The translations under genes were made by a program, and so were the position numbers. DNA of 64,000 bases, taken from positions 32,001 through 96,000 of IMG/VR virus record IMGVR_UViG_3300037524_002067, one strand, 5' to 3'. The DNA comes from a virus. The notes beneath the pieces are model-generated. The model was given only the letters and a program-made list of their open reading frames with translations. It made no database searches and had not been told where the DNA came from. Below are positions 16,210-45,565 of the stretch, one piece after another (position 1 is the first letter of the stretch; each line of letters starts with the position of its first letter).

Positions 16210-16233
16210 ACATACTGGGAAATTAAAAACTAG

Positions 16234-16318
16234 AAGCGGGGGTCAGATTCGAACTGACGTTCTCTTTCGAGTTAAAGGTTATGAGCCTTCGCTGGATCCA
16301 ACTCCAGTCGACCCCGCA
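16234..16318 (-). tRNA. tRNA-Met(CAT), initiator-like, long variable arm
   Basis: GCGGGG/CCCCGC acceptor with 1:72 mismatch, loop CTCATAA, GTTCGAATC T-loop. Confidence 0.7.
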
Positions 16319-16323
16319 ATTTG

Positions 16324-16468
16324 TTGCAATGGTTGGAATTGCACCAACTTTCTCTGACTTAGCGCCAGCGAGTTTTAGGTAGATAAATCCACAAACTACA
16401 AACACATATTACGTAATTCTATGTTTGCTAAAAGGATTCCATATAACCTTCTGTCTCTCTCCATTGCG
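16324..16468 (-). ncRNA. tRNA-like RNA with large internal insertion
   Basis: CGCAATG/CATTGCA acceptor, GTTGG-TGCAATT-CCAAC T-arm, 145 nt, no clear anticodon arm. Confidence 0.4.
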
Positions 16469-16481
16469 AGAGTTTGTTCTG

Positions 16482-16565
16482 TACCAGCGGTGGGACTCAA
16501 ACCCACAATACCACAGGGTATCCGCTTATGAGGCGGACGCAATTATCACATCTGCTCACACTGGC
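16482..16565 (-). tRNA. tRNA-Met/Ile2(CAT), long variable arm
   Basis: TCCGC-CTCATAA-GCGGA anticodon arm; GCCAGTG/CGCTGGT acceptor. Confidence 0.7.
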
Positions 16566-16606
16566 ATATTTATAGACACCATTATAATGTCTATAAATTT
16601 TTCTTG

Positions 16607-16689
16607 TTGAATAGACAGGATTTTAACCTGTGAACACGTTATGTGATCTGTGTTACACACAGACGGTTTTAACACTTACCTACTATCCA
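16607..16689 (-). tRNA. degenerate tRNA-Tyr(GTA)
   Basis: TGGATAG/CTATTCA acceptor, TCTGT-GTGTAAC-ACAGA arm, long variable arm, atypical T-loop. Confidence 0.45.
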
Positions 16690-17025
16690 TGACATGATTT
16701 CTCATTTACTAATACTGTTTCAATTAGATCGAGCGTTGCATGCCACGCCGAGAGAGTTCGTGTTTGGCGGATGTTATCTCACTCACAACTATCAACACTA
16801 TGTTTAGATGCTGGGATGTTTTGCATCCATCTTATCAATTACACTGAATGGTGAAGCACCAATTCCAGCATACTCAATATTTTCAAAACCATTTTCTTTG
16901 GTTATCAAAGACTCACTCTCGCTAATAGCTCCAGTAAATTTATCAAACCCTTTTTTGTTTTCAATCTTGCCAGTTGAAGGATTGTAATAAAATTAATTTT
17001 TACCTATTTATAATAAAACAATTTT

Positions 17026-17709
17026 ATGAAACCACTTTACACTACTAAAGAATTTAATTTAGCTAAATCTTTTGATAAATTACCTTGTGAATGCTATCAT
17101 TGTAAACAGCCATTTTTAATTTATAAAACTCGAATTGTTGATGTTTTAAGACCAAATAATAAAGTTAAAACAAAAGCAAAATATTGCTCAAAAGAATGCT
17201 CTTCAAAAGCTAGGAGTTTAAAAATAACCTATCAATGCCATCATTGCGGAAAGGAATGTGTTAAAAAAGCATCTCAAATCAAACTATCAAAATCAGGGTT
17301 TAATTTTTGTTCAAAACATTGCACATCTTCTTATCATATTAAACATAAAAACTACGGAACTAATCGTTCAAAACTAGAACAATGGATTGCTGAACAATTA
17401 ATTATAAAATATCCAGATCTTAATATTAAATACAACGATACTGAAACACTTAACGGATTAGAATTAGATATTTATATCCCATCCTTACAGATTGCTTTCG
17501 AATTAAATGGCGTTTTTCATTATGAGCCAATTTTTGGACAAGACAAACTTGACAAAACAATAAAAAAAGATAAGAACAAAATGAGCCTTTGTTTAGAAAA
17601 CAAAATTGATTTATGCATAATTGATACTACGTCACAAAAATATTTTAAAGAACATACTTCACATAAGTTTTTAGACATTATATTAAACATAATCCAACAG
17701 CGTTTATAA
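17026..17709 (+). CDS. zinc-finger plus DUF559/Vsr-like endonuclease (homing-type)
   Basis: several CxxC/YCS motifs; SKLE...LELDIYIPSLQIAFELNGVFHY. Confidence 0.7.
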   Translation: MKPLYTTKEFNLAKSFDKLPCECYHCKQPFLIYKTRIVDVLRPNNKVKTKAKYCSKECSSKARSLKITYQCHHCGKECVKKASQIKLSKSGFNFCSKHCTSSYHIKHKNYGTNRSKLEQWIAEQLIIKYPDLNIKYNDTETLNGLELDIYIPSLQIAFELNGVFHYEPIFGQDKLDKTIKKDKNKMSLCLENKIDLCIIDTTSQKYFKEHTSHKFLDIILNIIQQRL

Positions 17710-17871
17710 TTTATTGAATTGAATTCTTAAATCATGGATCTTTCTTTGATAATCTGAAACACTGATTTCTTTGGTGTTTGACGTTTTCTTCGTCAACTCA
17801 CTACGCATTTCATCTTCCAAAAATTTAATCCTCTCCTGAAGTTTTAACTTCTTCTTTTCTTGATTTACCAT
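17704..17871 (-). CDS. small coiled-coil protein
   Basis: 55 aa MVNQEKKKLKLQERIKFLEDEMRSELTKK... Confidence 0.45.
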   Translation of the reverse strand: MVNQEKKKLKLQERIKFLEDEMRSELTKKTSNTKEISVSDYQRKIHDLRIQFNKL

Positions 17872-18028
17872 CACGTTCTTTTTTTAGCTCATTAATTATT
17901 TCTTGTAACACAATTGCATGTCGAGCATACACAGTCATTTGTGCTTTTATTTTTTCTATATGATCTATGGTTGTTAATTTTGATTTTAATCTATAACCGT
18001 CTCCATCATCATTGTTTTGATTTTGCAT
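17825..18028 (-). CDS. hypothetical protein
   Basis: 67 aa ORF. Confidence 0.4.
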   Translation of the reverse strand: MQNQNNDDGDGYRLKSKLTTIDHIEKIKAQMTVYARHAIVLQEIINELKKERDGKSRKEEVKTSGED

Positions 18029-18228
18029 TTGTTTCTCTTTCTTCTTTCTACCGCATTGTTATAATCTACAACACACGTATCAATGTCATCTTCATATATA
18101 CGACATTTAATTTTTAAATTGCTTATTACATAAAACATTGACATAAACATCAAAGCTACAATAAGCGTTTTTTCCTTTTTTCAATTTCAATTTTTCATTT
18201 TTTTGTTTTTTTTTATTTGTTTTTCTTG

Positions 18229-18301
18229 AGCAGAAGAGGAGAATCGAACTCCCGTCCACGACTTGGCAAGCCATTGTAATAAGCCACTATACGACTTCTG
18301 C
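18229..18301 (-). tRNA. tRNA-Gly(GCC)
   Basis: cloverleaf, loop TTGCCAA, U73. Confidence 0.75.
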
Positions 18302-18375
18302 AGGAACAACCTCAGTCAACATTTTGCTACGAGTTACTGACGTAGTTTGGAGTTAACCTCTGGTTGCATTTTTTG

Positions 18376-18446
18376 AGCAAAGTATCGGATTCGAACCGCA
18401 CCCCGACATTGGAAGTGTCGTGCTCACCCTTCGAGCTCTACCTTGC
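18376..18446 (-). tRNA. tRNA-Gly(TCC)
   Basis: GACA-CTTCCAA-TGTC arm, GCTC/GAGC D-stem, U73; overlaps the HNH stop codon. Confidence 0.7.
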
Positions 18447-19059
18447 ATTTATTTATGTTTCTATTTCTTCCTCCGTGTGTATCTAAAGTCGCATTACAAT
18501 TTGGACATAATATTCTTAAATTTTCTAATCTATTATCGTTGTGAACGCCGTTTTCATGATCCAAAATTAAACTCATATGTGCACCATTCCATTCCTCCCC
18601 TTGCCCACACATTTCACATTTATTTTGTTTCAACCCCTCCCTATATAATCTATTTTTTAAAGATACAGTGTTGTTATAGGTTGAATTTTTAATTAATACA
18701 TTTTTTAAATCTATTTTTTTACTAAAAATAACTTGTTCTCCTTTATAATCAAAATGAGAAATATCAACCTCATATAAATTTATGTATTTTATAACTGTTT
18801 TACGATTCCCGTGCCCATCATTTAATTGTAATTTTCTAACAGCATCAGAATAACTTCTTGAATTTTTTATTATTTCAATAAATTCTTCTTTTACATATCT
18901 TTTGCTCCTCAAGTTTAATTTTAACTCTTTTGCTTTGTGTTTTACTGAATCTTTACTTCTATTAAGATTAACCATACAATAATTGACCCCGTATTCAACA
19001 TAATTAGAAATAACAAACTCAATTTCTTTTTCACTCCATTTTTTTGGTATTTTTTTCAT
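18424..19059 (-). CDS. HNH homing endonuclease
   Basis: CEMCG...LILDHENGVHNDNRLENLRILCPNCNA. Confidence 0.85.
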   Translation of the reverse strand: MKKIPKKWSEKEIEFVISNYVEYGVNYCMVNLNRSKDSVKHKAKELKLNLRSKRYVKEEFIEIIKNSRSYSDAVRKLQLNDGHGNRKTVIKYINLYEVDISHFDYKGEQVIFSKKIDLKNVLIKNSTYNNTVSLKNRLYREGLKQNKCEMCGQGEEWNGAHMSLILDHENGVHNDNRLENLRILCPNCNATLDTHGGRNRNINKCKVELEG

Positions 19060-19120
19060 TGCTCTTTACTTTTATTATAAATATTGCCAAAAAAAGCAAA
19101 GTGCAATAAAAATGTTTTTG

Positions 19121-19203
19121 AGCGAGTTGGGGTAGTCGAAACCCCATATATGCATTGGAAGTGCATCATAATACGCCTTTAAGCTCCGTTATACTAAACT
19201 CGC
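19121..19203 (-). tRNA. tRNA-Gly(TCC), expanded D-loop
   Basis: ATGCA-CTTCCAA-TGCAT arm; GCGAGTT/AACTCGC acceptor, U73. Confidence 0.7.
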
Positions 19204-19456
19204 AGTTTACACATTTTCCTTTAATTTTCAGAGGGCGGCAATGTGTTAGCCTTTCTGCTACTCTTTATAAAACACATCCTGCATATTCGTCCCTAAGGAT
19301 AATGTTATTTTGCAGTGCATCCCCTTAAAGGAATGACGGAGGATATCCGTTTCTTGTGCTTCAATTGGTATGGGCATTGTAAAAAACAAGACTACAAACC
19401 CATCTTTACAGCGTTACACATCTACCCGTAGCTAGGTCACAGACATGGCGCAGTCG

Positions 19457-19575
19457 TGGGGAGAGCTAGACTCGAACTAGCATAGCCATTTAAGGCAGCG
19501 TGGTTACGACCACACAATGCTTACCGTACCGAGCTTCGATGATCAGTCGAAAAGCGTGTACATTGCCACCTCCCC
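19457..19575 (-). tRNA. tRNA-Tyr(GTA)-like RNA with greatly expanded D-region
   Basis: GGGGAGG/TCTCCCC acceptor, A73, T-arm GCTAG-TTCGAGT-CTAGC, long variable arm, GTA in an irregular loop; 119 nt. Confidence 0.5.
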
Positions 19576-19601
19576 AAATAATTTTTTTGATTTAAATACG
19601 A

Positions 19602-20063
19602 TTAATCGTCTTTTTTGCTGTTAGCGTATTTAACGCCCATTATCGTTCCAATAATACTGAAACTGTTTGTAAGCAAGATGCTAAACATATTGCTCCATGT
19701 TGATTCTATGATTTTTACCTCATAACCTTTTACAAGAGCTAGAACATATAACCCTGTTGTAATTAATCCAACTCCAAGTATAATCCCAAGAGCAACTTTT
19801 ACAATTTGACCAACCAATTGATTTTGAGTTTTCTTTTGTAAAACTTCAAGTTCATGAAGCGCATCTTCTTTTTCTTGAGCGTTTTTTTGGCTTTGCTCCA
19901 AATGCCACTTGTTTATTCTTCCAACACTTGTGCCAAGTTCACGAGCAACAGCAAATTGATTTTCAACATCTTTACCATTAAGTTTCCCTGTTCTTAAATA
20001 CTCTTCATAAAGCTTTATTTTGTCAGGTGTAAATTCATTGCCAGATGTTTCTTCTTTTGCCAT
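19602..20063 (-). CDS. two-TM membrane protein
   Basis: start reassigned to MAKEE (TATTTATA upstream); two C-terminal hydrophobic helices. Confidence 0.65.
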   Translation of the reverse strand: MAKEETSGNEFTPDKIKLYEEYLRTGKLNGKDVENQFAVARELGTSVGRINKWHLEQSQKNAQEKEDALHELEVLQKKTQNQLVGQIVKVALGIILGVGLITTGLYVLALVKGYEVKIIESTWSNMFSILLTNSFSIIGTIMGVKYANSKKDD

Positions 20064-20135
20064 TGTTCGTTGTTTTTTTACTATTATAAATAATAACAAA
20101 AAAACTTCGGGCACAGGTTTTTAAAAAATAATTTG

Positions 20136-20221
20136 TGGAAATGACGGGACTCGAACCCGCATTAGAACTTTCGTCCGTCCTGATTGCAAATCAGGTGCCT
20201 AACCAATTAGACTACATCCCC
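20136..20221 (-). tRNA. tRNA-Ala(TGC), long variable arm
   Basis: G3:U70 pair, CCTGA-TTTGCAA-TCAGG arm. Confidence 0.75.
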
Positions 20222-20226
20222 ATTTG

Positions 20227-20300
20227 TGGAGGTAAACGGATTCGAACCGATGACCCCCTGCGTGCAAGGCAGGTGCTCTAGCCAGCTGAGCTATACCCCC
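20227..20300 (-). tRNA. tRNA-Ala(TGC)
   Basis: canonical cloverleaf, G3:U70, loop CTTGCAC. Confidence 0.92.
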
Positions 20301-20421
20301 AATTTAAAAAAATATGGCCTGGCATTGTGTTGATCAACCATGTATATCTCTTGTATACACAGCCAAGTTCGCCAATTTGTGTTACCGTAAAGAGAATGAA
20401 TAGGTAACCACCATATTTTTT

Positions 20422-20946
20422 TTATTTCCACATTCCACCTGAATTCAATCTTTCGATTTCTTTTTCAAGTTTCTTTTGTTTTTTCTTTTCAATGAAATCA
20501 TCAAATTCTTTTAAAAGAGATTCTGGAATCTCAATTCCTTTATCTGAAAATTCTTTCAAAATCTCTTCTCTTGTAAAAGTGTGCTCAACAATTCCATCTG
20601 TCCACTGATCACGCCATAAACCCCAACCTCTTTTTCCAACCAACAAAGATTTCATGATGTTTGGATGTCTTGTAATGATTGGTTTTCCACCACCATACTG
20701 ACCATTTTCAAATTTTCTGAAACAGTTTTTTACTTCTGGACCATTCACATCAAACTCTATTTCTTTATCCACTTGTGAACCACAAAACGTTATCAATCCT
20801 TTTCGATTGATATCTAAGAAAAATTTAAACATCTTGTTGAAATTATCGGAATACTTCTGAAGTTTTCTGTCTAATTGTGTTCCAATTTCTTTTTTTCTTT
20901 GCTCAATTCTTTTGAGTCTTTCATTGGTTAGCTTCTCGCTCCCCAT
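20422..20946 (-). CDS. hypothetical protein
   Basis: start reassigned to MGSEK because the track start lies inside tRNA-Tyr. Confidence 0.6.
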   Translation of the reverse strand: MGSEKLTNERLKRIEQRKKEIGTQLDRKLQKYSDNFNKMFKFFLDINRKGLITFCGSQVDKEIEFDVNGPEVKNCFRKFENGQYGGGKPIITRHPNIMKSLLVGKRGWGLWRDQWTDGIVEHTFTREEILKEFSDKGIEIPESLLKEFDDFIEKKKQKKLEKEIERLNSGGMWK

Positions 20947-20988
20947 CGCTCTTTCTCGCCTTTCATAGATTTTGTTTTTAATTGTTTG

Positions 20989-21070
20989 TTGGGGTGATCG
21001 GATTCGAACCGACTCAGCCAAGGCAACAGTTTTACAGACTGTCCTAACTCTCCAGCGTTAGCGCACCCCA
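20989..21070 (-). tRNA. tRNA-Tyr(GTA)
   Basis: ACAGT-CTGTAAA-CTGT arm, long variable arm, GGTTCGAATCC. Confidence 0.75.
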
Positions 21071-21078
21071 ATTTATTC

Positions 21079-21156
21079 TGGTGGGATAGAAGGGACTTGA
21101 ACCCTATGCGGTTGAGTTTTACAGACCCTCCGACTCTATTGCCTTGGCATTATCCC
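21079..21156 (-). tRNA. tRNA-Tyr(GTA), atypical, encoded CCA
   Basis: loop CTGTAAA, GGGATA/TATCCC acceptor, ACCA end. Confidence 0.55.
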
Positions 21157-21275
21157 AGTTGTAATTTTTGTCTAGGTTTTCTTCCTAACAATTGCTTTTA
21201 GAAGCTGACACATCCTCTGACGTGCCATCCCATGTACTTAGGGTAGCCTTTCAGCAACTTCTAAACTTTTTAATG

Positions 21276-21362
21276 CGGGACTGAAGGGAGTCGAACCCTC
21301 TACGAGATTTTCATCTGCACCACATAGACAGTGTGGCATACCAGCCGTTATACGCCAGCCCC
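21276..21362 (-). tRNA. tRNA-Asp(GTC), long variable arm
   Basis: CCACA-CTGTCTA-TGTGG arm, G73. Confidence 0.75.
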
Positions 21363-21393
21363 AATTTGATTTTTATCTAGGTTTTCTCCTAGT

Positions 21394-21469
21394 TGGCAGT
21401 GCATACGGGGGTCGAACCCGCTCCTCAACCGCAGACAACGGCGCATCTTAACCATTTGACCTATGCACT
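21394..21469 (-). tRNA. tRNA-Asp(GTC)
   Basis: loop TTGTCTG, GCCA end. Confidence 0.75.
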
Positions 21470-21480
21470 ATTTTTATTCT

Positions 21481-21551
21481 TGTCATCAAGGCTGGATTTC
21501 CACCAACAACCTCCCTGTGCACGGGACTCTTAGATGTTGAGCTACTTGATG
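21481..21551 (-). tRNA. degenerate tRNA-like RNA (anticodon uncertain)
   Basis: CATCAAG/CTTGATG acceptor, TAGCTCA D-start, TCCC-GTGCACA-GGGA arm. Confidence 0.4.
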
Positions 21552-21645
21552 AAGTATGATGGTAATTGTGAAGCTATGTTTTTCGATTGGAAGTCAAATG
21601 CCCTAACGGGCTAGAAGTAAGCAAACACATGGCCATCAATAAGTA

Positions 21646-21723
21646 CGCTGCAGTGGGATTTTCACCCTCGGTTACATCTCATTCCTCACGTGGAATGTAT
21701 CTTAAAAGTTAGACGACACAGCG
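21646..21723 (-). tRNA. degenerate tRNA-like RNA (anticodon uncertain)
   Basis: CGCTGTG/TGCAGCG acceptor, CATTCC/GGAATG arm, GGGTGAAAATCCC T-arm. Confidence 0.35.
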
Positions 21724-21802
21724 ATTTAATTTCCTACGGGGTTGAAACTTGCGTATGAAGAGCGACTTCACAGAGACAAATAACAACTCACCCGTTTATG
21801 TG

Positions 21803-21876
21803 TCGAGTAGACTGGAATCGAACCAGCTAACTGATGCTTCCAGGGCACCCGTGCTTATAACCTTAGTCACTACTCG
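21803..21876 (-). tRNA. tRNA-Pro(TGG)
   Basis: C1:G72, A73, GGTGC-CCTGGAA-GCATC arm (C at position 33). Confidence 0.65.
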
Positions 21877-22508
21877 TTTTTTTTATTATTTTTACCAGCA
21901 TAAGTTTTTGTTTGACTGTGACAATTAGGACAAAGAAATCTTAAATTTTCTATTCTATTATCGTTATTCACCCCATTCTTATGATCAAGTTGTAATACTA
22001 TTTTTTCATTCATCCACTCTCCTCTATTTTTGCATTTTTCACATGCATATTCTAATAATTCTTCTTTTAACAATCTTCTTTTTAAAGCGTGTTGACTGTA
22101 ACTTGAATTTATGATTAATATCTCATTTATATCTTTTCCTTTTTGTCCAGTTCTTTCTCTTCTAATGCCTTTAAATTTTTGACCTTCAAAATGAGAATTA
22201 TCTAAGTTGTTTTCAACAATTCTTTTTTTTATAGTTCTTATATTAGAACCTGTTGTTTTAATTTTAAATCCTCTACATATTTCAGAATATGTTGTTGATG
22301 TTTTTACCAATTCTTTTAATTTAGTTACATCATATTCTCTTCCAAGTCTTATTTTAAAATGTTTTAAATTTAAATTTAATTCTAATGCTATTTCTTTTAT
22401 TTTATTAAAAGTATAACCATTGTTTTTTAAACTCATTTTAGAACATACCTCACTCAAAGAAGTACTATTTTTTATTGCACGTTTTAATTTATCTTTATCT
22501 ATTTTCAT
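21870..22508 (-). CDS. HNH homing endonuclease
   Basis: LQLDHKNGVNNDNRIENLRFLCPNCHSQT. Confidence 0.85.
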   Translation of the reverse strand: MKIDKDKLKRAIKNSTSLSEVCSKMSLKNNGYTFNKIKEIALELNLNLKHFKIRLGREYDVTKLKELVKTSTTYSEICRGFKIKTTGSNIRTIKKRIVENNLDNSHFEGQKFKGIRRERTGQKGKDINEILIINSSYSQHALKRRLLKEELLEYACEKCKNRGEWMNEKIVLQLDHKNGVNNDNRIENLRFLCPNCHSQTKTYAGKNNKKNE

Positions 22509-22634
22509 ATATTTTATTTATAAAAAAATACGAAAAATAAAAGTATTAAACAAATTATTTCAATCAATTAGACCAACTCACGCAACTCCTGATATGAAGT
22601 TTTTGATTTAAAACAAAAGCAACAAAACAAATCG

Positions 22635-22707
22635 TCAGGGTGACAGGGGTTGAACCTGCGACCTCCTGGTCCCAAACCAGGCGCTCTCCCAACTGAGCTA
22701 CACCCTG
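22635..22707 (-). tRNA. tRNA-Pro(TGG)
   Basis: canonical cloverleaf CAGGGTGTAGCTCAG...TTTGGGA. Confidence 0.92.
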
Positions 22708-22789: not shown

Positions 22790-22828
22790 AAAACAAAAAA
22801 CCCGCTCTTTTTAGGGAGCGGGTTTGTT
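22790..22828 (-). terminator. attenuator terminator of tRNA array 1
   Basis: AAACCCGCTC-loop-GAGCGGGTTTTTT between the leader ORF and the first tRNA. Confidence 0.85.
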
Positions 22829-22855: not shown

Positions 22856-22984
22856 TTATCCAAGCTTTCTAAAAGTCAAAACATATCCGCTCCCATAGCT
22901 ATAATCATAAGCTGGGGCATACCCTGCACCGCCCATCATCGGGGCTGCTGGAGTAGTTGCTGAATATGTAGTTACTGTTTTCAC
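22856..22984 (-). CDS. attenuator leader peptide for the Pro/Asp/Tyr/Ala/Gly/Met tRNA array
   Basis: GTG start; MKTVTTYSATTPAAPMMGGAGYAPAYDYSYGSGYVLTFRKLG; contains GGGAGCGGATATGTT complementary to the terminator 5' arm. Confidence 0.8.
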   Translation of the reverse strand: MKTVTTYSATTPAAPMMGGAGYAPAYDYSYGSGYVLTFRKLG

Positions 22985-41842: not shown

Positions 41843-41896
41843 TTTGCTTCAATGTAGTCATAGCCAGGGTTGTTAAAGCTTAAAGCCCCTGGCTTG

Positions 41897-41929
41897 CTAC
41901 TTGAGCAAATATCGAATTGAGAATTTCAT
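41897..41929 (-). CDS. upstream leader peptide ending in UAG (MKFSIRYLLK)
   Basis: follows TATTTATA; the stop lies in the 5' arm of a long hairpin reaching the next start codon. Confidence 0.45.
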   Translation of the reverse strand: MKFSIRYLLK

Positions 41930-41944
41930 GTATATAAATAATGT

Positions 41945-42682
41945 TTATTTTTTTAAAAATAACTCCCCCATTTTACGTGCAAGAGCTTCCTTTAGTTGCA
42001 AATTTAATGAAAATTCTTGAATATCCAAACCCAACTCTCTGGCAATCATCTGGATGTTTTTCAACCCTTCTTCATTCATGTTTGCTTTCCTAAGTTTTAC
42101 CATGTAATCTTCATCAAAAAGATATAACACATGTTTTTCACCATCTGATTTTGACATTTTCTTCGTGGGGTCAATCAACGACATTACCTTATCCACATGC
42201 CCAAATTCATATGCATAATCATCTCTACCACCAACACGCTTACAAATATCGTTTGCAAGCTCTATGTGAGCAACCTGATCCCTGCCAACAATAATTACGT
42301 CTGGGTCATTGATCATAATATCAGCTGCCATTAAAACGGGATATAAAAGCAAACCCATATCGTACTCAACCTTGTCTTTTTTATCTTTATACTGAGGCAT
42401 CTTTAACAGTGTGGCAATATTTACCTTACAGCAAATTTTGAAAAAAAGTTCTGTATACAAAGGTGTTTGGTGCACAATTTTTTTGCACCCCAAACGAATA
42501 AGCTCTTGCTCAGTTTTATCTGAATAACTATCGGTTGTCAAAGAATGGTAATTGGCAATCAAAAAAGTCACATCATGACCTTGCTCTTGCAAATCAATAC
42601 CTTTCTTAAGACAACCAAGATAGTTGCCTATGTGAAGTTTGTTAGTCGGTTGAATGCCGATTAATATTTTTTTTGTTTTCAT
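41945..42682 (-). CDS. trpS: tryptophanyl-tRNA synthetase (compact)
   Basis: GIQPT..LHIGNYLG, YPVLMAADI, VGRDQ..H.EL, KMSKS; start reassigned to MKTKK. Confidence 0.92.
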   Translation of the reverse strand: MKTKKILIGIQPTNKLHIGNYLGCLKKGIDLQEQGHDVTFLIANYHSLTTDSYSDKTEQELIRLGCKKIVHQTPLYTELFFKICCKVNIATLLKMPQYKDKKDKVEYDMGLLLYPVLMAADIMINDPDVIIVGRDQVAHIELANDICKRVGGRDDYAYEFGHVDKVMSLIDPTKKMSKSDGEKHVLYLFDEDYMVKLRKANMNEEGLKNIQMIARELGLDIQEFSLNLQLKEALARKMGELFLKK

Positions 42683-42684
42683 CG

Positions 42685-42769
42685 CACGTCGAAGAGGATT
42701 CGAACCCCTGTGAGACCTAAGTCTGCTGGTTTTGGAGACCAGTGCTATCAACCACTCTGCCATCGACGT
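42685..42769 (-). tRNA. tRNA-Trp(CCA) with long variable arm
   Basis: CTGGT-CTCCAAA-ACCAG arm, A1:U72, G73, variable stem AGAC/GTCT. Confidence 0.8.
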
Positions 42770-42847
42770 ATATAGATGTTTAAAATTACGGATTAGAATT
42801 TTTAAAGCCTCGGTCTTGTCGCCGCTTCCTTAATCTATCACATCTTG

Positions 42848-43071
42848 TTACCAGTACGGGAATCGAACCCGCATAATTGTTGTGCACGTGCTTTGGAAAA
42901 CTCGCTTCCTTACTTTGTCGTAGACATTTCAGTGCATCCGTAACCATGCAGCACGTTACTCACACCATATTTGCTCAGACTATGCCTTCAACGCTTTCTG
43001 TAGCAAGTCAACAATTTCTCTTTCGAGAACCCTTCGTTTTAGGTTTGTCTTTCCATTTAGACGAACTGGTA
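42848..43071 (-). ncRNA. tRNA-like RNA with about 165-nt insertion in place of the anticodon arm
   Basis: TACCAGT/ACTGGTA acceptor, GTCT/AGAC D-arm, GCGGG-TTCGATT-CCCGT T-arm, AATTGTTG/CAACAATT closing stem. Confidence 0.6.
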
Positions 43072-43077
43072 ATTTTG

Positions 43078-43150
43078 CACGAGTGGCAGGCATCGAACCC
43101 GCAACCTTTGGTTTTGGAGACCACTACTCTACCAATTGAGCTACACTCGT
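43078..43150 (-). tRNA. tRNA-Trp(CCA)
   Basis: canonical cloverleaf, loop CTCCAAA, G73. Confidence 0.92.
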
Positions 43151-43153
43151 GTA

Positions 43154-43747
43154 TTATTTGTTTTTGCTTTTTAAATATCTTGTTTTTCTACTTGAGTTTT
43201 TGTTTTTAGACTTATATGTATCAAGTTGAGAATCACAATTAGGACAAACCAGCCTCAAATTTATTCTAAAATTATTGTAAGCGTTACCATCTATATGATC
43301 GAGAATAAAAACCAATCTAATGTTATTCCACTCGTTTTTTATACCACACACAGCGCATTTACAATTCTGTTCTAATAAAATGTGCTTTTTAATAAAGCTC
43401 ATATTCCTATCATGACAATACTCGTGTTGGTTATTTAAATATTTGGCATATATTTCTTTAGATTGATTTTCATAATAACAATCACGACTGCAAAAAGTTT
43501 GATCTGGGTGGGTGGTTAACTTTATATTTTTATCACACTCCTTACACTTAATTATTTTAGCTGTTCCTTTATTAGCTGGAACAAAATTATCTTTAAAATT
43601 CGCTCTTTTAGGAAGAATTATACCTAATTTTTTAGCCGCTTTTTTTATAGTTTCATCAGTAACTCCATACATTTTACCTATCTTTATATAAGATAGTTTT
43701 TTATCAAAAATTAATGTTGACAACTCTTCTTTGTTATAATTTTTCAT
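43154..43747 (-). CDS. HNH homing endonuclease
   Basis: CAVCG...ILDHIDGNAYNN...NLRLVCPNCDSQ. Confidence 0.85.
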   Translation of the reverse strand: MKNYNKEELSTLIFDKKLSYIKIGKMYGVTDETIKKAAKKLGIILPKRANFKDNFVPANKGTAKIIKCKECDKNIKLTTHPDQTFCSRDCYYENQSKEIYAKYLNNQHEYCHDRNMSFIKKHILLEQNCKCAVCGIKNEWNNIRLVFILDHIDGNAYNNFRINLRLVCPNCDSQLDTYKSKNKNSSRKTRYLKSKNK

Positions 43748-43844: not shown

Positions 43845-43921
43845 TGATCGCCACGGGAGTCGAACCCGTATGTGTCCAATTACTCTTTCAACTGCTTAGA
43901 AGGCAGAGGAGTTATGCGACC
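43845..43921 (-). tRNA. non-canonical tRNA-Arg(TCT) lacking a D-arm
   Basis: CTGC-CTTCTAA-GCAG arm only about 8 nt after the acceptor strand; normal T-arm. Confidence 0.6.
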
Positions 43922-43928
43922 TTTTTTG

Positions 43929-44005
43929 TGACCACCACGGGATTCGAACCCATATGCATCCACTTACTCTTTCAACGGTTTAGGAAACCGAGGAGATATG
44001 CGGCC
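43929..44005 (-). tRNA. non-canonical tRNA-Arg(CCT) lacking a D-arm
   Basis: CGGT-TTCCTAA-ACCG arm; same architecture as its neighbour. Confidence 0.6.
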
Positions 44006-44009
44006 ATTT

Positions 44010-44086
44010 GTGATTGATAATTGTGGAATCGAACCACTGAGTTTTTACACTCCGACACCTTGAGCTCAAGTCAATTTACCAATCAC
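44010..44086 (-). ncRNA. tRNA-like RNA with extended terminal stem
   Basis: GTGATTGGTAA/TTATCAATCAC stem, GTGG-TTCGATT-CCAC T-arm. Confidence 0.4.
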
Positions 44087-44090
44087 TTTG

Positions 44091-44162
44091 TAGTCCCACT
44101 AGGAATCGAACCTAGATAATTGGTTTAGAAAACCAAGGCTTTATCCATTAAGCTATGGGACC
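44091..44162 (-). tRNA. tRNA-Arg(TCT)
   Basis: canonical cloverleaf, TTGGT-TTTCTAA-ACCAA arm. Confidence 0.88.
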
Positions 44163-44322: not shown

Positions 44323-44326
44323 ATTG

Positions 44327-44417
44327 CAGAAGTGACGAGATTCGAACTCGTGCGCCGATTTTCACCGACCTATCAACTTTCCAGGCTGACCCCTTTCATC
44401 CACTTGGGTACACTTCT
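44327..44417 (-). tRNA. tRNA-Ser(GGA)
   Basis: loop CTGGAAA, long variable arm, G73. Confidence 0.88.
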
Positions 44418-44425
44418 ATGTTTTG

Positions 44426-44514
44426 CGGAGGCGGTGAGGATCGAACTCACGCAGCGGATTTCTCCGCCCTAACGGTTTAGCAAACCGTCCCCTTCACCAC
44501 TTGGGTACGCCTCC
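44426..44514 (-). tRNA. tRNA-Ser(GCT)
   Basis: loop TTGCTAA, long variable arm, G73. Confidence 0.9.
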
Positions 44515-44519
44515 AATTG

Positions 44520-44608
44520 AGGAGAGCATAGGATTCGAACCTAATGCGGGTCTTCCCCGCACCCTTTGTTTAGCAAACAAGGACTAGCCCAAGCCAGCAT
44601 TACTCTCC
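44520..44608 (-). tRNA. tRNA-Ser(GCT)
   Basis: loop TTGCTAA, long variable arm. Confidence 0.8.
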
Positions 44609-44688
44609 AATTTTATCTCCGCATTTTTGCGGAGATTACGATGTTTATTCACCGCACAAAAATAAAAAACAATACGTCAAAAAACTTT

Positions 44689-44774
44689 TGGCGGAAGATA
44701 TAGGAATCGAACCCTGCCCTTGCGGACCGCCCCATGCTTCAAACATGGTTGACCACCGATGGTCGCTACCTTCC
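44689..44774 (-). tRNA. atypical tRNA-Ser(TGA) with 8-bp acceptor stem
   Basis: GGAAGGTA/TATCTTCC, GACCA-TCGG-TGGTC D-arm, loop TTTGAAG, GCCA end. Confidence 0.7.
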
Positions 44775-44779
44775 AGTTG

Positions 44780-44864
44780 AGGAGAGTGTGAGATTCGAAC
44801 TCACGGACCCCGAAGGGCCTCCAGTTTTCAAGACTGGTGCAATAGACCACTCTGCCAACTCTCC
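44780..44864 (-). tRNA. tRNA-Ser(TGA)
   Basis: canonical, CCAGT-CTTGAAA-ACTGG arm. Confidence 0.92.
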
Positions 44865-45250: not shown

Positions 45251-45271
45251 TTTTCTTAATTTACTTTAAAT

Positions 45272-45303
45272 AAAAAACCCTGGCTTTTTGTGAGCCAGGG
45301 TTT
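45272..45303 (-). terminator. attenuator terminator of tRNA array 2
   Basis: AAACCCTGGCT-loop-AGCCAGGGTTTTTT. Confidence 0.85.
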
Positions 45304-45341
45304 AGAGTCCGTTGAATTAAGGGTTAAATATCTTTCTTCAG

Positions 45342-45431
45342 TTATGACAATAAATGGCCTGGCTCGGTTGCTCTACTTGAGCTCGAACTCCTTCTCCAAG
45401 ACCATGATCTATTGTTTGTAACTGTTTTCAT
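45342..45431 (-). CDS. attenuator leader peptide for the Ser/Arg/Trp tRNA array
   Basis: MKTVTNNRSWSWRRSSSSSRATEPGHLLS; contains GAGCCAGG complementary to the terminator 5' arm. Confidence 0.85.
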   Translation of the reverse strand: MKTVTNNRSWSWRRSSSSSRATEPGHLLS

Positions 45432-45434
45432 TTG

Positions 45435-45500
45435 TTATAAATATGCTAAAAATTCTTTTTTCTGAAATTTTATACGTACAAAGATAGAATAAGTTTCAAC
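45435..45500 (-). promoter_or_regulatory. compound promoter of tRNA array 2
   Basis: TGAAAC-N16-CGTATAA plus TATCTTTG plus TATTTATA; paralogous to 22995-23062. Confidence 0.65.
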
Positions 45501-45565
45501 AAGAAACAAGTTTTTTTACAAAATTTTTTGTTTGTTGCTGATTTTTAGGTAGATAAAATTTTTAA

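Follow-up and report, generated by a model that had tools for sequence, protein, structure and literature searches.

A phage tRNA operon very likely controlled by a ribosome-mediated transcription attenuator, one of five such units in its genome

The window analysed here comprises 64,000 nucleotides, i.e. positions 32001-96000 of a 154,343-bp virus record estimated to be 59% complete and encoding a T4-like large terminase. On its minus strand it contains an array of tRNA-Ser, tRNA-Arg and tRNA-Trp genes with a trpS gene, preceded by a promoter-like site, a short open reading frame and an intrinsic terminator (unit A; Table 1). The leader reading frame, which is unannotated, was directly confirmed in the sequence. 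It contains an unbroken run of 13 Arg, Ser and Trp codons from codon 8 to codon 20. Across the six reading frames of the 154-kb genome no Ser/Arg/Trp run is longer, the second longest having 7 codons, and the chance expectation is ~3e-7 under an independent-codon model. An octamer downstream of this run has its exact complement in the 5' arm of the terminator (45299..45292), the hairpin of which forms 11 bp (45303..45275) followed by a U tract. A TAnnTTTG element is found 47-82 nt upstream of all five leaders of the genome and is kept in orthologs. TAnnTTTG is the housekeeping promoter motif of Bacteroidota; our promoter call rests on the motif match only, and promoter activity is inferred.

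Table 1. Coordinates of the features of unit A and of the further leader units of the same genome
Feature	Position	Strand	Remarks
Promoter-like site, Bacteroidota type	45479..45505	(-)	TAnnTTTG -7 element at 45486..45479; 55 nt before leader start
Leader ORF A	45342..45431	(-)	29 codons + stop; frame and stop kept in orthologs L004, L053
Sensing block	45372..45410	(-)	13 consecutive codons: Arg (AGA/AGG), Ser, Trp
Segment 1	45396..45413	(-)	predicted only: pairs with segment 2 in ribosome-free leader (protector hairpin)
Segment 2, antiterminator octamer	45358..45365	(-)	codons 23-25; complementary to terminator 5' arm; compensatory change in orthologs
Intrinsic terminator (segments 3:4) with U tract	45268..45303	(-)	
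ORF, 126 aa	44870..45250	(-)	between terminator and first tRNA; function unknown
Five tRNA-Ser genes (TGA x2, GCT x2, GGA)	44326..44864	(-)	three strict, two relaxed calls
Arg region	43846..44162	(-)	tRNA-Arg(TCT) 44090-44162 and two tRNA-like elements without D-arm (one CCT loop, one TCT loop)
HNH endonuclease gene	43154..43747	(-)	within array A; profile-confirmed
Two tRNA-Trp(CCA) genes	42684..43150	(-)	flank ~226-nt tRNA-shaped RNA
trpS	41945..42679	(-)	244 aa; begins 5 nt past last tRNA-Trp; PF00579
Leader ORF B	22856..22984	(-)	GTG start, 42 codons; Pro/Ala/Met/Gly/Tyr/Asp-rich; antiterminator segment near 22894-22887
Unit B terminator	22793..22824	(-)	
tRNA array B	16233..22707	(-)	Pro, Asp, Tyr, Ala, Gly, Met
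Leader C	genome 28884		array Asn/His/Thr/Lys/Ile/Met
Leader D	23516		array Leu/Cys
Leader E	1515		array truncated by contig end; ortholog array Phe/Val/Leu/Arg-ACG

Strict calls with ARAGORN and Rfam identified Ser-TGA, Ser-GCT, Ser-GGA, Arg-TCT and two Trp-CCA genes in array A, all of them Ser, Arg or Trp tRNAs, and a relaxed threshold added Arg-CCT and one further gene each for Ser-TGA and Ser-GCT. In the two tRNA-like elements of the Arg region (43846-43921 and 43932-44006, minus strand; TCT and CCT loops) the anticodon hairpin directly follows the acceptor strand. The ~226-nt tRNA-shaped RNA (42846-43071, minus strand) combines regular acceptor, D and T arms with a multibranched insert of ~150 nt, and it out-folds 199/200 shuffles. 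A preliminary description made from the sequence alone had reported the 29-residue reading frame, the 13-codon run and the octamer with its complement in the terminator, all of which held as described, and an array of Ser, Arg and Trp tRNAs followed by trpS, which was likewise borne out by the strict and relaxed tRNA calls and by PF00579. Its Arg-CCT and second Arg-TCT genes held in part, as the anticodon loops are present and the D-arm is missing, while a tRNA possibly reading ACG failed, the 8-nt loop of the ~226-nt RNA being unassignable to an anticodon. The gene layout following the leader could be extended by the 126-aa ORF ahead of the first tRNA and by the HNH gene inside the array.

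The 126-aa ORF has no match in Pfam or PHROG and is missing at the corresponding place in the orthologous loci L004 and L053. HNH-like genes also lie repeatedly between the tRNAs of arrays B-E; the profile check covered the copy in array A only. The trpS product is short for a bacterial TrpRS. It is ~70% identical to the TrpRS of huge phages of 642 and 735 kb, and a TrpRS scan across bacterial genomes found no relative. Phage genomes larger than 634 kb have been predicted to infect Bacteroidetes (PMC7162821). From the kinship of TrpRS to that of huge phages and from the TAnnTTTG motif we infer a Bacteroidota host, which is not shown; a bS21 gene was not found in this genome fragment. At 41860-41930 (minus strand) a 10-codon ORF precedes a strong hairpin that lacks a U tract. 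Short motifs are shared with leader A, and the element is possibly a degenerate copy of the leader or a translational switch.

The preliminary description was too narrow in scope, as unit A is one of five units in this genome belonging to a clade-wide system. All tRNA arrays of the record begin alike with a promoter-like site, an ORF of 29-42 codons and a terminator 26-39 nt past its stop, an anatomy that is shown computationally, and each of the five leaders scores best with its own array. Arg is represented by AGA/AGG codons in leader A, and by CGN codons in leader E, the ortholog of which precedes an array with Arg-ACG. Amber (CTA) tRNAs lack a leader-terminator unit in this genome (49480-49552), in G001 and in LR756501 (L015; L064). 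Furthermore, in L066 (genome C1 16-112 and ~220-355) and likewise in the relative L002, tRNA-like genes carry inserts around the anticodon, which might represent tRNA introns as described for Lak phages.

Related loci were retrieved via TrpRS and the promoter pattern, and units were called by a rule blind to amino acids, i.e. a terminator before a tRNA, an ORF ending 15-50 nt earlier and a start picked by A/T richness. The detection thresholds were fixed after examples had been seen, and unit C was added by hand. This resulted in 41 units in 13 related phage records, containing 299/315 strict tRNA calls. The arrays have been reshuffled among these phages and the leaders follow, with Lys-only, Gln-only, Leu-only, Leu/Ser and His/Lys/Trp/Phe/Ser combinations, among others. 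The peptides of different leaders are unrelated in sequence, having in common only a composition tied to their own array. For 30 non-redundant units, the own array was top-ranked of 30 for 29 of the 30 leaders, with a mean z of 3.76 versus a permutation maximum of 1.32, so that 0/200,000 permutations reached it. The covariation of leader codons with array anticodons, which the preliminary description had proposed as a check in related phages, is thus shown computationally. The units share ancestry and orthologs were removed by eye, and the permutation result is not phylogeny-corrected. A search of viral contigs with the DNA pattern of leader A yielded mostly chance matches.

The match extends to isoacceptors. 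ATA makes up 8/10 Ile codons in the leaders of Ile-TAT-only arrays versus 0/16 in those of Ile-GAT-only arrays (p 3e-5), and for Arg the corresponding comparison of AGR codons gave 5/6 versus 0/7 (p 0.005). For the Ser codon boxes no clean separation by array was obtained in the covariation test, for which Ser tRNAs missing from the strict calls are partly responsible. Of the units bearing trpS, nine have an intact 5' end, and each of their leaders carries a Trp codon.

In held-out phages we found seven matched units in total. The 735-kb huge phage LR756501 contains two arrays not seen before, both with matched leaders, the gut megaphage Lak-B1 (MK250020; L062, L063) has matched leaders before both of its main tRNA arrays, and three matched leader-terminator units are present in the cultured Cellulophaga phage phi4:1 (KC821632 87065-90926; L073), for which slightly looser thresholds were used. 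In phi4:1 Arg is split, a CGT codon preceding Arg-ACG and an AGA codon preceding Arg-TCT. The phi4:1 leaders lie at 87065, 88025 and 89771; two of them lack an annotation, and the third is entered as the hypothetical protein gp075. No unit was detected before the arrays of four unrelated phages (crAss cr111_1, Klebsiella SEL21, RHph_Y65 and Hallingskeid), and Flavobacterium phage immuto_2-6A and two regions of LR756508 did not yield a convincing one. We conclude that the leader-attenuator system is widespread among Bacteroidota phages, and not universal.

These data bear on the alternative that the leaders constitute a general translation-rate or timing switch, according to which any slowing of ribosomes, by infection stage, stress or antibiotics, opens all arrays together, the codon match playing a secondary part. 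A general slowing of ribosomes can act on leader attenuators, and arrays with many isotypes, as in Lak-B1, have leaders broad enough to approach general sensors. However, leaders are rewritten with every reshuffling of an array, down to single-isotype Lys, Gln and Leu leaders, which would be needless for a general sensor, and we regard this alternative as very unlikely.

Next to the codon match, the RNA supports an attenuator. The ribosome-free leader A RNA folds into a long 1:2 hairpin and the terminator, and this protector hairpin is predicted at -26.1 kcal/mol in leader A and at -16.3 kcal/mol in the ortholog L004, the only two sequences folded for it; in attenuators of the trpL/ilvL/pheM type such a protector or pause hairpin serves to synchronise polymerase and ribosome. 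Three orthologs have diverged in the spacer and retain the promoter, the reading frame with its stop, and the terminator, and indels within the ORF preserve the frame, providing indirect support for translation of the leader, which itself is inferred. All 2:3 and 3:4 pairs are retained in the three orthologs, including a three-way compensatory change with C-to-U in the terminator 5' arm and one G-to-A each in the antiterminator and in the 3' arm; this is a single event, seen in two sequences. Compensatory pairing is thereby shown computationally, and the mutually exclusive folds, a further check put forward in the preliminary description, are supported by prediction and by this change. Duplexes of antiterminators with their own terminator arms have a mean energy of -10.0 kcal/mol versus -7.0 kcal/mol with the arms of other units; the best antiterminator duplex is non-significant versus shuffles in 18/41 units.

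In a codon-by-codon ribosome model of leader A the antiterminator is possible up to codon 18 in the A-site and is lost at codons 19-20, i.e. at the end of the sensing block. In most of the 41 units a fold-only switch point coincides with the end of the matched codons or lies close to it, with 383/488 matched versus 216/517 unmatched codons located before it, and with a ribosome at the stop codon the antiterminator is lost in 39/41 units. The switch geometry is shown within this folding model, and the switch position relies on an assumed ribosome footprint reaching 10 nt beyond the A-site codon. When the full transcript of leader A is folded at equilibrium, the terminator is favoured at every ribosome position, without any switching seen, and the switch would therefore have to be kinetic.

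According to an alternative explanation, the short ORFs encode small functional proteins or are frames arisen by chance, and the hairpin is an ordinary terminator of the upstream genes. A+T-rich short ORFs are common, and the end of an ArdC-like gene lies 135 nt ahead of leader A. This explanation is contradicted by the permutation result, the switch-point geometry and the compensatory pairing, and furthermore by the promoter-like site before the leader and by unrelated peptides resembling each other only in their array-matched composition, and we consider it all but excluded.

Taken together, the data make it very likely that unit A is a ribosome-mediated transcription attenuator of the trp/ilv type controlling a phage tRNA operon; the evidence is computational, without expression data. 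The trp/his-type layout claimed in the preliminary description is hence supported, and untested at the bench. This supports a model according to which a host-type RNA polymerase would start ~55 nt upstream of the leader and a ribosome would translate it. With fast decoding of the Ser, Arg (AGA/AGG) and Trp codons, the ribosome would move past codons 19-20 and cover segment 2, resulting in terminator formation and a stop of transcription. When the matched codons are read slowly, the ribosome would linger within codons 8-18, allowing segment 2 to pair with the 5' arm of the terminator while the 3' arm is still untranscribed, and the polymerase would read into the tRNA-Ser, tRNA-Arg and tRNA-Trp genes and trpS. 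The regulated read-through and the co-transcription through trpS are inferred, and it is possible that internal promoters express parts of the array independently. The tRNAs produced would relieve the stall, resulting in a negative feedback on tRNA supply, a loop that would be self-limiting because its products read the sensing codons.

The physiological trigger is inferred as well. The same attenuator could sense amino-acid starvation, i.e. uncharged tRNA, as in biosynthetic operons: in the established attenuation mechanism a stalled ribosome cannot distinguish an uncharged from a missing tRNA, and trpS lies within the unit, always behind a leader with a Trp codon. Against this, a shortage of an amino acid is not cured by more tRNA, the leader codons follow the isoacceptors of the array and not merely the amino acids, as seen for Arg in units A and E and likewise in phi4:1, and no biosynthetic genes were seen in array A. 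We therefore regard starvation sensing as unlikely. We infer that a shortage of tRNA is the better fitting purpose, because extra tRNA is no cure for starvation and because the leaders track isoacceptors. Host anticodon nucleases, a general decay of tRNA and codon demand are possible sources of the shortage that our data do not separate; the host anticodon nucleases named as trigger in the preliminary description thus remain an inference, other causes of slow decoding not being separated. A bolder reading, towards which we lean by a narrow margin, is that in several lineages of Bacteroidota phages the tRNA pool is monitored by a closed loop with isoacceptor resolution, in which each leader would detect the loss of particular tRNAs, e.g. 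to host anticodon nucleases, and switch on only the matching tRNA block. If true, the phages would possess a counter-defence that is inducible and resides entirely in cis.

The presence of tRNA genes in phages has long called for an explanation, with compensation of codon usage, replacement of degraded host tRNA and evasion of anticodon nucleases as proposed answers. The leaders imply a synthesis of tRNAs on demand and indicate which codons are monitored by each phage, resulting in hypotheses testable array by array, and the system explains the sorting of arrays by amino acid. The leaders would also represent natural multi-codon sensors of tRNA supply. As the system is present in published genomes (the 735-kb huge phage and Lak-B1) and in phi4:1, for which both the phage and its host Cellulophaga baltica #4 are in culture, experiments are feasible now.

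As a summary, we describe what is very likely a known attenuation mechanism applied to tRNA genes, in phage and as parallel modules. No account of a codon-sensing attenuator for tRNA genes was found in the literature searched, most subscription papers being outside its reach, and the papers on huge phages, Lak phages and jumbo phages mention neither attenuation nor a leader. The enterobacterial ilvGMEDA, thr, trpL, hisL and pheL systems are leader-peptide attenuators, ilvGMEDA and thr being multivalent; the pheL attenuator is described in PMC3082878. The phage units resemble these in the promoter-like site, the short leader ORF with control codons, the 2:3 and 3:4 helices, the intrinsic terminator and the use of several amino acids per leader, and a 1:2 helix is predicted for leader A and L004. 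In contrast, they regulate tRNA genes, partition the tRNA set between parallel units, and have leaders that track isoacceptors and follow the reshuffling of arrays. The definition of the classical amino-acid operon class, comprising biosynthesis, transport and synthetase genes, is not met, since tRNA genes dominate with one synthetase in unit A; the units work alike without being members of the class, and no covariance-model match to the amino-acid leader families of Rfam was obtained.

The E. coli pheM-pheST operon (PMC4082710) is likewise a translation-machinery operon under leader-peptide attenuation, and unit A also ends in a synthetase gene; however, pheM-pheST concerns one amino acid and the synthetase only, whereas the phage units chiefly make tRNAs. 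T-box riboswitches share the antitermination of translation-related genes depending on tRNA status, but they bind uncharged tRNA directly without translation, while in the phage units the signal sits in a conserved reading frame, and no Rfam match to a T-box was found in the phage leaders even at E up to 5. A link of T-boxes to Clostridium tRNA-Asn genes has been reported. The cryptic trn operon of cyanobacteria and long tRNA arrays (PMC8421152) similarly tie a tRNA array to translational stress and homing endonucleases, whereas neither attenuation nor a leader is mentioned there. The cyanobacterial trn operon is under repressor control at initiation. Finally, phage tRNAs counter host tRNA nucleases, e.g. 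in the case of Septu and the T6 tRNA-Tyr (PMC13096335), and such counter-defence is the likely selective reason for an on-demand tRNA supply; the known cases consist in the presence or amplification of a gene, unlike the codon-sensing transcription switch of the phage units.
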